Shown in pieces: positions 2,186-6,413 of a stretch of DNA of 6,413 nt. The stretch is taken from assembly GCA_038874215.1 (NCBI GenBank), contig JAVZCV010000036.1:1-6413 (forward strand), given 5' to 3'. Under the pieces are notes generated by a model. The model made no database searches. It was not told the DNA's origin and worked only from the letters and a program-made list of their open reading frames with translations. The stretch's first letter is position 1. Every line of letters starts with the position of its first letter. A program made the translations under genes and the position numbers. This stretch comes from Candidatus Micrarchaeia archaeon (GTDB taxonomy: Archaea; Micrarchaeota; Micrarchaeia; Burarchaeales; JAVZCV01).

Positions 2186-2689
2186 TCACAAACCTATGAA
2201 ATTCCTGTTTCCCCTGTCAAACAATTTTTTTTCCCTCCTTCCGCTATCGTGAATTTTAACAACTTCGCCCACGAAGATAGTATGGTCGCCCGTTCCTATG
2301 CTGGCTACGACCTTGCATTCCATGTTGGCCATGCATTCTTTTATGAGCGGGGGTTTAACGCAATCAGCCTTCATTGGCGTTAGCTTTGAGAATTTGTCCG
2401 TGTCTCTGCCGCTCGTCGTACCACAGAAGAGCGCTTCCTCAACCATATTCTCGGAGGGTATGCCAAGCACGAACTCTCTCGTCTCACTTATGGATTTGTG
2501 GCTGTATCTCGTGTTCCCGACACATATTGCCACCATGAAAGGATTGAATGAGGCGGGCATCGCCCACGCAAGTGTTATTATGTTGGCTTTGCCTTCTTTG
2601 TTTACGCTACTCACAAGAACAACCTGCGCTGGATAAAGCCAGTGGTACGGTTTTTCGGCGTAGTTGTATTCAAAGTCGGTTTCAGACAT
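2186..2689 (-). CDS. Flavin reductase-like (DIM6/NTAB, flavoredoxin-type) FMN-binding split-barrel protein
   Basis: Family-typical segments: LYPAQVVLVSS, NIITLAW, RYSHKSI, CGTTSGRDTDKF, MECKV and GDHTIFVGEV. Confidence 0.9.
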   Translation of the reverse strand: MSETDFEYNYAEKPYHWLYPAQVVLVSSVNKEGKANIITLAWAMPASFNPFMVAICVGNTRYSHKSISETREFVLGIPSENMVEEALFCGTTSGRDTDKFSKLTPMKADCVKPPLIKECMANMECKVVASIGTGDHTIFVGEVVKIHDSGRREKKLFDRGNRNFIGL

Positions 2690-3467
2690 GCTCTCCCTTT
2701 ATGCCCAACAGTATAAGTTTTTTTTCCAAATCTTCTTTAAGTTTTTCGGCTATGAAGTGCTTTGTGTATGCGTCTCCTTTTGCTGCGATTGATATCTTCG
2801 CTGATAGGAGACGCGCAATTTTTCCGCGCACTTTCTTCGGGGACATGCTTATGTATGGATGCTTAAATATTATTCCGTGTTTAGGTGGCTTTGTGTGTTT
2901 TCTCAGATGCTTGAAAAGCGCTTTCTCGGCTCCCATAACCTGAATTCTGCTCGCCGACATTCGTGCGAGTTTTTCTATGCTGCCTGCCTTGGCGATGAGC
3001 TCCGCTGTAATAGCAGGGCCTACTATGTAAGATGTGTTGGGGGCAACATCTGATGCAAGCTTCTCCTCGTATTCGGAAAGTTTCTTTCTAATTTCGTAGA
3101 GGGATAGGATGAGTTTTGCGAGCTCTTTCATCTGCTCTATATCATCTGGCTCAAATTTAGCGCCGAGGCTCTTAGATGCGCTATTTGCTATCTCATGCGC
3201 TTTTTTTGAACCAACAACTTTTGCGAGTTCTTCTTCATCTATTGAATCCCTGTTTATCGCAAGAACGAGCTGTGGAAACTTCTCGCCCTCTGCCTTCAAT
3301 TCGGGGAAATAGAGGCCGTACCATTCTCGCAACCTTGTGCTGAGCAGGTTTATCGTTTTATCAAGCTCTGAGACTGCGCCGACTGTATGTATCAGAAGCC
3401 TGTCCCTCTCGCCAAGAGCTACTGAAACGGCTTCGCGAGTTCTTCTCAAAATCTCGTCTCGGTCCAT
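2682..3467 (-). CDS. nop5: Nop5 (aNOP56/58) box C/D RNP scaffold protein, coiled-coil plus Nop domain, short N-terminus
   Basis: Signature segments LDKTINLLSTRLREWYGLYFPEL, APN, IQVMGAEKALFKHL, PPKHGIIF and RGKIARLL. ATG at 3467 has SD GGGGTGA, and an in-frame TGA lies immediately upstream. Confidence 0.93.
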   Translation of the reverse strand: MDRDEILRRTREAVSVALGERDRLLIHTVGAVSELDKTINLLSTRLREWYGLYFPELKAEGEKFPQLVLAINRDSIDEEELAKVVGSKKAHEIANSASKSLGAKFEPDDIEQMKELAKLILSLYEIRKKLSEYEEKLASDVAPNTSYIVGPAITAELIAKAGSIEKLARMSASRIQVMGAEKALFKHLRKHTKPPKHGIIFKHPYISMSPKKVRGKIARLLSAKISIAAKGDAYTKHFIAEKLKEDLEKKLILLGIKGEHV

Positions 3468-4023: not shown

Positions 4024-4518
4024 CTATCCAAAAGGAGGATAGACTACTACACAGCGAGGCGTAGAGGCTCCGCATGTGCCCGCATCGTCCATTGCTTCTA
4101 TTGTAAGGTGGTAGGTGCCGCTCTTGCTGAATCTTTCTGCATAAGTGCTATCAGCCCATTTTGTAGGGACTAATGTAAGAGCTACAACGTCGCTCTTACC
4201 CGAGGGTGTGAGCACTCTTATTACCACCTCTCTCCCGCTTGTTATTGATGAGCCTCCGCTCGCCTCCTGTCCTATTATTATTTTCTCCGTATTCTGCGGT
4301 ACTGAAATTAGAAGATTCATTTTTGCTGGCGGGCCCATAGCGCCGACTATATCTATCGCGTTCTTTATCCTTTTTGCCGTGTTTTCTGCTTGCGCTATCG
4401 CTATTTGCTGTGAGGAATTGCTCACTTGTAGATAAACCAAAAAGATGACAGGTAGTATTACGGCAACGGCAAACGCTATCGTTATCAGGAGTTCGGTGCT
4501 GACCTGTGCTTTTACCAT
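4024..4518 (-). CDS. Class III signal peptide-containing (type IV pilin-like) protein
   Basis: Starting from ATG 4518 gives MVKA|QVSTELLITIAFAVAVILPVIFLVYL (Q+1, E+5). The longer ORF-track start at 4677 overlaps the upstream gene and would bury the signal peptide. Confidence 0.85.
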   Translation of the reverse strand: MVKAQVSTELLITIAFAVAVILPVIFLVYLQVSNSSQQIAIAQAENTAKRIKNAIDIVGAMGPPAKMNLLISVPQNTEKIIIGQEASGGSSITSGREVVIRVLTPSGKSDVVALTLVPTKWADSTYAERFSKSGTYHLTIEAMDDAGTCGASTPRCVVVYPPFG

Positions 4519-4542
4519 ACAATCCCAATGGTTATCGTTCCG

Positions 4543-4560
4543 TATAATATTAACCTTTTG
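4543..4560 (-). promoter_or_regulatory. Putative BRE-TATA promoter for the pilin-like gene pair (short or no leader)
   Basis: The minus strand reads CAAAAGG-TTAATATTATA about 25-42 nt upstream of ATG 4518, overlapping the stop codon of the upstream gene. Confidence 0.5.
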
Positions 4561-4891
4561 CAGTCCAGATTTCGTTAAGCGCGGATTGCATTGCGTATAT
4601 GGTATAAAGTGTGAGAGGGGGTATTGCAAAAATAACCAATAACGCCCGTGTGTCAAGGCCGTTAAAGCCGCTGTCAATTGAGAGGTGGTCTATCTCGTTT
4701 AGCGTTTTCCAAACCACAAAAAGGTTTAATATGGGGATTATAAATACGAGCGTGCGGAGGAGGGGGTTGATATCAAGCGATGCATACTCTGAAATTTCTT
4801 TATTTATTTTATAATACCAGAATATAGCGTAGAGCCCAAAGGTTGAGATGATAAAGGCAATAACCCTCATTGGGTCAATCGGCTCTCCCAC
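4550..4891 (-). CDS. Small multi-pass membrane protein, DUF4234-like
   Basis: Three hydrophobic segments with the pattern STFGLYAIFWYYKINKEI ... IPILNLFVVWK ... YAMQSALN, resembling DUF4234 from memory. GTG start with GGGGT upstream. Confidence 0.75.
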   Translation of the reverse strand: MGEPIDPMRVIAFIISTFGLYAIFWYYKINKEISEYASLDINPLLRTLVFIIPILNLFVVWKTLNEIDHLSIDSGFNGLDTRALLVIFAIPPLTLYTIYAMQSALNEIWTAKG

Positions 4892-4920: not shown

Positions 4921-4938
4921 ATTTTATATAATTTTGTT
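4921..4938. promoter_or_regulatory. Bidirectional TATA box between divergent genes
   Basis: Palindromic TTATATAA at 4924-4931. It lies about 23-30 nt before the Lrp ATG (4954) and about 33-40 nt before the GTG at 4891 on the other strand. Confidence 0.55.
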
Positions 4939-4953
4939 TATCATAATTGAAAC

Positions 4954-5262
4954 ATGATAACTGCGATAGTATTAATTGAAGCGGAGGTTGGTGCGGCAAT
5001 AGATGTCGCAGAGAAGGTTGCAGCATTACCAGAAGTGCGAGAAGCGTACACTGTTGCAGGAAATTACGATGTGGTGGCAATAGTATGCGTTAAGGAATTT
5101 GAGGAAACGAGCCGAGTAGTGGTTGGGAAGATATCAAACATACCGGGAGTGAAGAAAACAACGACGCTTTTTGCTTTTGAATGCTTCTCCAGATATGACG
5201 TTGAGAGGATGTGGGGCGTAGGATTTGAGGAGAAGATAAACCAAAAAACACCCTCGCAATAG
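4954..5262 (+). CDS. Stand-alone Lrp/AsnC ligand-binding (RAM) domain protein, no HTH
   Basis: MITAIVLI...LPEVREAYTVAGNYDVVAIV...IPGVKKTTTLFAF matches the AsnC C-terminal domain. The protein is 102 aa with no N-terminal helix-turn-helix. Confidence 0.9.
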   Translation: MITAIVLIEAEVGAAIDVAEKVAALPEVREAYTVAGNYDVVAIVCVKEFEETSRVVVGKISNIPGVKKTTTLFAFECFSRYDVERMWGVGFEEKINQKTPSQ

Positions 5263-5277
5263 TGGATGCTTGCAGAA

Positions 5278-5312
5278 ACCGGATTAGAGGGGTTCGATTC
5301 CCTTCCCCAGCT
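5278..5312 (+). tRNA. tRNA-Cys 3' half (positions 38-73)
   Basis: A38, CCGGA anticodon-stem strand, TTAG variable loop, AGGGG-TTCGATT-CCCTT T arm, CCCCAGC acceptor strand and T discriminator. No encoded CCA. Confidence 0.93.
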
Positions 5313-5337
5313 TTAAACTTGAAAAGACGTCGTCTGG

Positions 5338-5373
5338 GCTGGGGTGGCAGAGTGGCTATGCGTCCGGCTGCAG
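5338..5373 (+). tRNA. tRNA-Cys 5' half (positions 1-37)
   Basis: GCTGGGG acceptor strand, T8, D arm GCAG-AGTGGCT-ATGC with the conserved GG, TCCGG stem strand and CT-GCA-G loop. Confidence 0.93.
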
Positions 5374-5400
5374 AACAAAATTTTAGTGGGGGGCGTCATA

Positions 5401-5844
5401 TTGGATTTAATAGATATAGTAGAGGAGAAAAAAGGGTGGTTGGCGCTTGTTATTCCTGCACTTATATATTTGTCTTTCTACAACAGGAATGATCCATTAA
5501 TAATAACAACTTTGTTCTCATACGTAGTAGGGATTGCGTTTTTAACCATAGAGTTAGAGAAAATAAAGAAGGAGATAAGCAGAAATAAGGATAGATTGAA
5601 GGATGATATTCGCGTTTTGCAGTTTGTATTTTCTAAGAAATCAGTTCTTGCTTCAGGTATGTTGTTGCTAATATGTTGCCTCGTAACTTTATGGTATCTA
5701 TACCAGCGTATTTATGAATTTTGGGCTTACGCGTTTTTTATATCTCTTATTTTGGCATTTGTGTATGCGGTGATTATGGCAGTTGTTAAAGTTGGTGTTC
5801 GGAATATTAAGAAGATAGTAGATAATTCTAATAATAATCAATAG
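5401..5844 (+). CDS. Hypothetical membrane protein (about 4 TM), low GC
   Basis: Open frame with hydrophobic segments. TTG 5401 follows a G-rich SD-like run (5388-5393), and GTG 5386 is an alternative. The ORF-track start (5344) falls inside the tRNA 5' half. No family recognised. Confidence 0.7.
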   Translation: MDLIDIVEEKKGWLALVIPALIYLSFYNRNDPLIITTLFSYVVGIAFLTIELEKIKKEISRNKDRLKDDIRVLQFVFSKKSVLASGMLLLICCLVTLWYLYQRIYEFWAYAFFISLILAFVYAVIMAVVKVGVRNIKKIVDNSNNNQ

Positions 5845-6413
5845 TTGCCGATTAGTAGAGCTTCGGCTTTTTGAAGAAGTTTTCTTTTTTGTTTAATGAA
5901 GACGCTGGTGGTGTGGATTTCGCTTTCTATCCGCTTTATGTCTGCAAGCAGATTGGCAGGTTTTGTCCCGCTTCTACGATTAATTACATTTGCGGGTGTT
6001 AGAGCTTTAAGTTCGCTATCTTCAATTTTAACACTCGCCCGCTTGCTTATCTCGTCGGCATTTATGGAATTGAGTGGTTTTCCCTCTNNNNNNNNNNCGC
6101 CTTTTTGTGCGAGCAAATCGGCAAGGTCCGTCGCCAAAGTATAAACGCTGGTGGCTTCGGCCATTCTCGCCTTGTTGAATTTTGAGCGTTTAAGTATTTC
6201 GTTTAGTATTAGAAGAGATGACTTCGCGATTTCAACACTCCTCATGAGCGGCTTTTTTGTTTCTTGCGTGTCTGCATTGTGCCCAGAGATGAGCGATTTG
6301 GTTGTAGAAAGAATGGAGAAAAGCCCCCCATGCACTCTTGATGTTCTTGCCCGCATGATTTCAAGCGCATCGGGGTTCTTTTTCTGGGGCATTATTGAGG
6401 AAGTGGTGCAGAA
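5838..6413 (-). CDS. argH: Argininosuccinate lyase, C-terminal part (5' end beyond window)
   Basis: The frame is open to the window edge and reads FCTTSSIMPQKKNPDALEIMRAR, the fumarase/ASL superfamily signature in its ArgH form. It also contains the ArgH-typical ATDLADLLAQKG. Confidence 0.9.
   Translation of the reverse strand, partial: FCTTSSIMPQKKNPDALEIMRARTSRVHGGLFSILSTTKSLISGHNADTQETKKPLMRSVEIAKSSLLILNEILKRSKFNKARMAEATSVYTLATDLADLLAQKGXXXXEGKPLNSINADEISKRASVKIEDSELKALTPANVINRRSGTKPANLLADIKRIESEIHTTSVFIKQKRKLLQKAEALLIGNY
6088..6097. other. Assembly gap (10 N) within argH
   Basis: Ten Ns at the point where ArgH normally has the PFRxAHxxVG helix, so the true gap is probably longer than 10 nt. 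Confidence 0.95.

Follow-up and report, generated by a model that had tools for sequence, protein, structure and literature searches.

A candidate circularly permuted tRNA-Cys(GCA) gene with a 37/38 junction on a Micrarchaeota-like archaeal contig

The locus and the origin of the contig

The stretch of DNA analysed here, called the window in the following, is a contig of 6413 nt whose features are collected in Table 1. Downstream of a gene for an AsnC-like protein the plus strand carries two tRNA halves in swapped order, the 3′ half (35 nt) being followed by a linker of 25 nt and then by the 5′ half (36 nt). The original prediction had placed a 3′ half in front of a 5′ half on the same strand, 25 nt apart, and its coordinates proved exact; the order of the halves is that of a permuted gene. 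The 3′ half comprises A38, the 3′ strand of the anticodon stem, a variable region of 4 nt, the T arm, the 3′ strand of the acceptor stem and the discriminator U73, after which no CCA is encoded. The 5′ half comprises the 5′ strand of the acceptor stem, the D arm, the 5′ strand of the anticodon stem and the loop positions 32–37, with the anticodon GCA at 5370–5372. Two palindromes are found in or at the linker, TTTAAA (5312–5317) and GACGTC (5326–5331).

Table 1. Features of the window and the basis on which they were assigned
Feature	Position	Strand	Basis and remarks
518-aa ORF	1–1554	−	One clear membrane-spanning stretch; assigned to no family in Pfam or NCBIfam; open at the contig end
Nop5	2682–3467	−	ORF annotation
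ORF	4024–4677	−	No family found
ORF	4550–4891	−	DUF4234
Lrp/AsnC ligand-binding protein, 102 aa	4954–5262	+	Pfam PF01037, E 9.7e-17; ends 16 nt before the 3′ half
Presumed precursor leader	5263–5277	+	Carries the strand 5272–5275, then A5276 and A5277; predicted to be removed; from folds
tRNA-Cys 3′ half	5278–5312	+	Covariance model R2, positions 37–71; ARAGORN on the rejoined halves; unique pattern match
Linker (intervening sequence), discriminator to G1	5313–5337	+	25 nt; small hairpin at about 5324–5334
tRNA-Cys 5′ half	5338–5373	+	Covariance model R2, positions 1–36; Rfam tRNA model, positions 1–36; ARAGORN
Loop positions 32–35, central-helix strand	5368–5371	+	Pairs with 5272–5275; from folding
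Trailer ending in a TTTT run (5381–5384)	5374–5384	+	Candidate archaeal terminator, presumed

Besides these genes the contig encodes a flavin reductase, a metallophosphoesterase, the C-terminal part of a lyase and, following the tRNA, a small membrane protein. The ORF at 4024–4677 overlaps that at 4550–4891 by 128 nt, and its start is therefore probably later than listed. We also considered whether the contig might be circular. The two ORFs of the minus strand that are open at the contig ends could be connected in frame, but the lyase domain needed by the missing N-terminus of the other ORF is absent from the 518-aa ORF, and a circular contig was rejected.

The lineage was judged from Nop5. 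Its best non-self relative is 57% identical, and among the relatives listed those with a name (15 of 120) comprise 11 from Candidatus Micrarchaeota or Micrarchaeia and one each from Ca. Burarchaeum, Ca. Bilamarchaeum, Parvarchaeota and Ca. ainarchaeum. Both Ca. Burarchaeum and Ca. Bilamarchaeum we take to be Micrarchaeota, which would make 13 of the 15 named relatives Micrarchaeota-type. To judge from these protein sequences the contig looks Micrarchaeota-like and would thus belong to the DPANN archaea, in agreement with the DPANN-like host that had been guessed from the DNA letters. For the AsnC-like protein only one non-self relative was found, at 41% identity, which marks the lineage as poorly sampled. 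The ORFs of the window use 19 Cys codons, so that the organism needs a tRNA-Cys.

Searches of phage and plasmid collections gave no match to the region. That an integrating element had left the halves behind as a tRNA fragment was rejected as well, since the window contains neither an intact tRNA nor, among its ORFs, an integrase. Two repeats of the plus strand should be mentioned here. The permuted arrangement is flanked by a direct repeat of 19 nt (5210–5228 and 5387–5405), which is imperfect, its copies being 74% identical. An exact 14-mer, AGATAAACCAAAAA, occurs twice among the positions 4430–4443, 5234–5247 and 2153–2166, the third copy being 86% identical; the copy at 5234 lies within the tail of the AsnC-like ORF, 31–44 nt upstream of the 3′ half. 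The AGATAAACCAAAAA repeat could be a chance occurrence or a promoter-like element.

The two halves and the rejoined tRNA

The acceptor arms (5305–5311 and 5338–5344) are complementary at 7/7 positions and the arms of the anticodon stem (5279–5283 and 5363–5367) form 5/5 pairs; each of the 12 pairs joining the halves is Watson–Crick, and the exact complementarity that had been claimed for them is thereby confirmed. When the halves were rejoined by their coordinates, ARAGORN reported a tRNA-Cys(GCA) of 71 nt with a 7-bp acceptor stem and the discriminator U. All 20 pairs of the cloverleaf are standard and 19 of them are Watson–Crick, so that the rejoined halves make up the complete cloverleaf of a recognisable isoacceptor, with the length, the GCA anticodon and the U73 that had been foreseen. 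The folding energy of the rejoined tRNA stands out only mildly, with a z-score of −2.0, and is equalled by 28 of 1000 shuffled sequences.

It could be argued that two such halves were brought side by side by an assembly artefact of a metagenomic contig that is, after all, only 6413 nt long. However, both flanks continue into ordinary genes, no repeat of at least 14 nt touches the tRNA halves, and the longest exact string common to flank and gene measures 7 nt. With no longer exact repeat linking the tRNA to its flanks a k-mer misjoin is unlikely, and we regard an artefact of this kind as very improbable.

Standard searches do not detect the locus. On the unaltered window ARAGORN found no tRNA gene, and Rfam, with E-values up to 10, found no tRNA and one match to MicA (1037–1110), which with 23.3 bits and an E-value of 3.2 against a gathering score of 41 was discarded as a chance match. 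That standard scanners would miss the gene had been predicted, and both programs did so. As permuted genes are invisible to ARAGORN and Rfam, the tRNA counts by which the completeness and the coding capacity of DPANN bins are judged can be too low. The 5′ half presented separately was matched by the Rfam tRNA model over positions 1–36 with 12.6 bits (E 1.9), which is below the gathering score of 29. For the separate 3′ half the tRNA model was not reported by Rfam, and the matches were T-arm matches to tmRNA models only.

We also used a covariance model (R2) based on the contiguous tRNA-Cys genes of three DPANN genomes, the cloverleaf being set by hand; a model with an automatic consensus structure (R1) had a wrong D arm and was left unused. 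R2 aligned 5338–5373 to its positions 1–36 (35.8 bits, E 8.6e-9) and 5278–5312 to its positions 37–71 (22.0 bits, E 1e-5), each half standing at the end of the searched stretch and both E-values being rough, as they refer to 60-nt stretches and a short calibration. When the entire window was searched unfiltered, the two halves were the top two matches, and three others followed with E-values of 1.7–3.3. Since R2 has no position 17, a break between its positions 36 and 37 corresponds to the canonical 37/38 site. Positions 5278 and 5374 are both A, and from the sequence alone the break can therefore also be written as 38/39.

A pattern made of the 3′ strands of the anticodon and acceptor stems, CCGGA-N19-25-CCCCAGC, has a single match in the window, and none of 200 dinucleotide shuffles contains it. 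For a permuted-gene scan every 140-nt block was doubled onto itself and run through ARAGORN with introns allowed. Flagged blocks of the window start only at 5211–5291, and in 20 shuffled windows no place was flagged. Applied to 22 unrelated loci with 340,452 bases in all, the same scan produced 21 clusters; they fall in 8 loci, and in 7 of these 8 complete tRNAs lie at or beside the clusters. The eighth locus (L021) has no complete tRNA, and the scan therefore has a false-positive rate: at 6161–6211 of L021, a locus of a bacterial MAG, the doubled blocks yield a "tRNA-His(atg)" where ordinary ARAGORN finds none, and we took this as a false positive.

The rejoined tRNA was compared with contiguous archaeal tRNA-Cys genes. 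Identity is 56/71 to the gene of an unclassified archaeal MAG (L014) and 55/71 each to those of a Woesearchaeota (L015) and a Pacearchaeota (L016) genome, and the D arm is identical in all three; L015 and L016 are likewise 71 nt long. Two further genes, L009 and L003, share 49/71 and 48/71 positions. At the inter-half pairs 3:70, 27:43 and 28:42 both bases differ from the consensus of L014–L016 with the pairing kept. The identity and these double-sided changes show that both halves are parts of a single tRNA-Cys of DPANN type. Taken alone they would fit a working gene or a recent remnant alike. The three DPANN genes are in one piece and lie directly 3′ of another tRNA gene, whereas the gene in the window is permuted.

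Predicted transcription, splicing and maturation

Within 5179–5400 of the plus strand the only run of at least four T is TTTT at 5381–5384, 8 nt after the 5′ half, and this run is presumably the terminator. The clearest promoter of the window is TTTATATA at 4923–4930 in front of the leaderless ATG 4954, and a similar box at 5405–5418 precedes the TTG at 5440. TATA boxes about 24–30 nt before these two start codons suggest that the host has leaderless mRNAs. With a TATA consensus of 8 positions, for whose calibration one gene of the window served, no match of at least 6/8 was found in 5184–5311, and the best one in 5215–5262 reaches 5/8. The promoter is the least secure element of the locus. 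Possibly the tRNA is co-transcribed with the upstream AsnC-like gene. Runs of T5 and T4 at 5168–5178 of the plus strand, inside the AsnC-like ORF and near the end of its Pfam domain, resemble an internal terminator; they would hinder read-through from the promoter of the upstream gene to the tRNA and argue against co-transcription.

A different view of the locus would be that of a split tRNA with adjacent halves, transcribed separately, with a second promoter in the linker, and joined in trans, so that no circle would be formed. The linker indeed contains TTTAAACT at 5312–5319, which matches the TATA consensus in 6/8 positions and starts 26 nt before G1, and adjacent halves of a split tRNA are described for Aeropyrum pernix (in the part of PMC3218864 dealing with split genes). 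But 6/8 matches occur at a frequency of 0.0149 per position in the window, so that the match in the linker is no rarer than chance, and with the spacing of the gene that has TTTATATA in front of its ATG the start belonging to the linker box would fall at about 5342, within the tRNA. Moreover, no terminator separates the 3′ half from the 5′ half, and leader and trailer pair over only 4–6 bp. Known split tRNAs have long complementary flanks. Neither such flanks nor own promoters of the two halves are seen here, and we consider a split tRNA quite unlikely.

According to the description of canonical archaeal introns in PMC4090602, a central 4-bp helix takes in the first two bases of the anticodon and stands between two 3-nt bulges that bear the splice sites. 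When the putative precursor is folded, the leader strand 5272–5275 pairs with the loop positions 32–35 and forms the central 4-bp helix of a BHB-like motif, with bulges at 5276–5278 (3′ junction) and 5372–5374 (5′ junction). The chance of four Watson–Crick pairs at exactly this register of the leader is 0.0025, or 0.012 when G–U pairs are admitted. Since the loop string is palindromic, the pairing of the leader also shows as a 7-nt direct repeat (5271–5277 and 5369–5375). At the 3′ junction A5276, A5277 and A5278 form a 3-nt bulge adjoining the anticodon stem, with the predicted cut (5277|5278) after the second bulge base; the succession of outer helix, 3-nt bulge and 4-bp helix in the fold matches that of canonical introns. 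The bulge geometry of this predicted structure favours a break at 37/38 over one at 38/39, and together with the alignment to R2 it speaks for the canonical 37/38 site that had been claimed.

The 5′ junction (5373|5374) is less complete. It has no outer helix, and an added pair A5375–U5271 would be unfavourable (−25.4 kcal/mol). The cloverleaf with the 4-bp helix has −30.4 kcal/mol versus −25.6 kcal/mol for the cloverleaf alone. A 6-bp helix, in which A36 and G37 pair with U5271 and U5270, reaches −32.1 kcal/mol; it is 1.7 kcal/mol stabler than the cleavage-competent form and hides the 5′ bulge. Because the outer helix is missing at the 5′ junction and the central helix can be extended to 6 bp, the motif is to be classed as relaxed and hBH-like (bulge-helix-loop), and cleavage would therefore hinge on a splicing endonuclease of broad specificity. 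The precursor as a whole has an unremarkable folding energy: its z-score is 0.07, and 99 of 200 shuffles do no worse.

The maturation that we propose would start from a single transcript consisting of leader, 3′ half, 25-nt linker, 5′ half and trailer. Its acceptor, anticodon, D and T stems would form as in a normal tRNA while the leader 5272–5275 pairs with the loop positions 32–35, placing the 3′ junction in a canonical 3-nt bulge and the 5′ junction in an open bulge or loop. A broad-specificity splicing endonuclease would cut both sites, an RtcB-type ligase would join G37 to A38 to give a circle, and RNase P and tRNase Z would then excise the linker, with CCA being added thereafter. We put forward the circle, the action of RNase P and of tRNase Z and the addition of CCA by analogy to Cyanidioschyzon merolae. 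In the section of a permuted-gene review on processing, the pathway of BHB cleavage, ligation to a circle, trimming by RNase P and by tRNase Z, and CCA addition is given as established for this alga and as unproven for Archaea (PMC3978253). By ORF family search the 6413-nt contig encodes no splicing endonuclease, RNA ligase, RNase P, tRNase Z or CCA-adding enzyme.

Could the two halves be a non-functional remnant, left by a rearrangement or by a tandem duplication followed by deletion, with the working tRNA-Cys encoded elsewhere? The failure to find a promoter upstream and the incomplete motif at the 5′ junction are what one would expect of a remnant, and the pattern scan described below returned no relative with the permuted arrangement. 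The pairing of the leader, too, might be inherited rather than selected if the locus arose from a tandem pair of intron-containing genes, as in the model outlined in PMC3978253. Against this, both halves are flawless with all 12 inter-half pairs Watson–Crick, and the leader helix, the 3-nt bulge and the downstream T4 run are all in place. Decayed outer halves were sought in the flanks by local alignment and no significant alignment was obtained: 170 shuffles out of 2000 in one case and 966 out of 2000 in the other score as high, and control pairings are similar. Flawless inner halves between traceless flanks point to selection on the inner halves, and we judge a remnant to be rather unlikely.

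To sum up the evidence on the gene itself, the reading as a permuted tRNA-Cys(GCA) broken at 37/38 is supported by the partner halves, by R2 and by ARAGORN, and it is weakened by the relaxed splicing motif and by the upstream promoter that was not found. On the strength of its sequence the locus is in our estimate probably a genuine and working circularly permuted tRNA-Cys(GCA) gene with a 37/38 junction in a Micrarchaeota-like DPANN archaeon. The permuted gene would then presumably be the working tRNA-Cys of the cell.

Disrupted tRNA genes in other genomes

Permuted tRNA genes are rare, and the reviews and papers searched give two archaeal cases, both from one crenarchaeon and both with a 59/60 junction. 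Kind, junction type and isoacceptor of the gene in the window are already on record from green algae. In the permuted-gene review, the 37/38 junction is listed as type II and as the commonest type in green algae (PMC3978253). The prasinophytes Ostreococcus lucimarinus, O. tauri and Micromonas pusilla have permuted tRNA-Cys(GCA) genes which share with the gene in the window the isoacceptor, the 37/38 junction, the order of the halves and the lack of an encoded CCA; their linkers measure 26, 38 and 12 bp, respectively (Table 1 of PMC3978253), versus 25 nt in the window. The prasinophyte genes are eukaryotic nuclear genes (PMC3978253), whereas the gene in the window is archaeal. An origin independent of the green-algal cases seems likely. 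If the permuted reading is true, the locus would be a parallel to the green-algal tRNA-Cys genes, apparently by convergence.

The novelty ascribed to a permuted tRNA-Cys by the original prediction was thus overstated, since three green algae have 37/38 Cys(GCA) genes (PMC3978253, entries on green algae). Full-text searches of the literature outside supplements and subscription journals turned up no permuted tRNA reported from DPANN or Micrarchaeota. The archaeal entries of the 2014 review, as far as its section on these genes goes, are only the iMet and Tyr genes of Thermofilum pendens, both with a 59/60 junction (PMC3978253). According to the account of these two genes in PMC3218864 they are permuted, have a BHB-type junction and were found via incomplete standard predictions; they have linkers of 7 and 1 nt, an encoded CCA and an extra intron at 37/38 and belong to a crenarchaeon. 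The gene in the window differs in having its junction at 37/38, a linker of 25 nt, no CCA and no extra intron, and in lying in a DPANN archaeon.

Split tRNAs, as described in PMC3218864 for Nanoarchaeum equitans and for the adjacent tRNA-Asp halves of A. pernix, are joined at 37/38 via a BHB-like motif and the splicing endonuclease, as is predicted for the gene in the window. Split genes, however, have separate transcripts and own promoters (PMC3218864, same part), whereas the halves in the window are 25 nt apart and swapped and have no good second promoter between them. In the passages on tRNA genes of a 2026 preprint covering 208 Nanobdellota genomes, tRNAs are found missing and split genes are the only kind discussed.

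A neighbour at the phylum level is ARMAN-2 (Candidatus Micrarchaeum acidiphilum), a member of the Micrarchaeota in which 56% of the tRNA genes are stated to be disrupted (PMC3239211; also PMC12397907, PMC5829648). In vitro the epsilon2 endonuclease of this organism cleaved a strict motif and also the organism's own pre-tRNA-Cys at a motif of the relaxed hBH type, as given in the relevant parts of the same papers (PMC3239211; also PMC12397907, PMC5829648). This pre-tRNA-Cys(GCA) is of the isoacceptor found in the window and is disrupted too, with a relaxed hBH motif (PMC3239211, part on tRNA-Cys) like the one predicted here. The ARMAN-2 gene has the normal order with a 13-nt intron at 59/60 (PMC3239211, same part), whereas the gene in the window is permuted.

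We lean, by a narrow balance, towards a fuller reading in which the locus would be the first DPANN permuted tRNA gene to be reported, the first archaeal one with a 37/38 junction and the only tRNA-Cys of the organism, and in which it would be matured from a relaxed bulge-helix-loop junction via a circle by an epsilon2-type endonuclease, possibly after being freed from an mRNA's 3′ end. If the permuted reading is true, permuted tRNA genes would extend to DPANN, and this would agree with the co-evolution that has been proposed between disrupted tRNA genes and splicing endonucleases of broad specificity. If it is also true that this is the sole tRNA-Cys, some of the tRNAs reported as missing from DPANN bins would be permuted genes and not losses.

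Further cases were sought by a pattern scan of 185,579 species genomes, in which the genome of the window itself is absent. The pattern consisted of a T loop, a gap of 20–50 nt, the start of a D arm, a gap of 12–19 nt and an anticodon loop; it is exact and narrow and would miss genes with other letters in the D arm or T loop, or with introns such as that of ARMAN-2 at 59/60. The scan returned 22 loci with no permuted tRNA-Cys among them. Read in the permuted manner, these loci form at most 5/7 acceptor pairs, compared with 7/7 acceptor and 5/5 anticodon-stem pairs for the window. Five are ordinary archaeal tRNA-Cys genes and the remainder are chance matches. The five contiguous genes were retrieved because each of them follows another tRNA gene. 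In the three DPANN loci the tRNA-Cys lies 2–8 nt downstream of its neighbour, which is a tRNA-Lys in L014 (9949–10195) and a tRNA-Arg(TCT) in L015 (9966–10111) and L016 (573–720).
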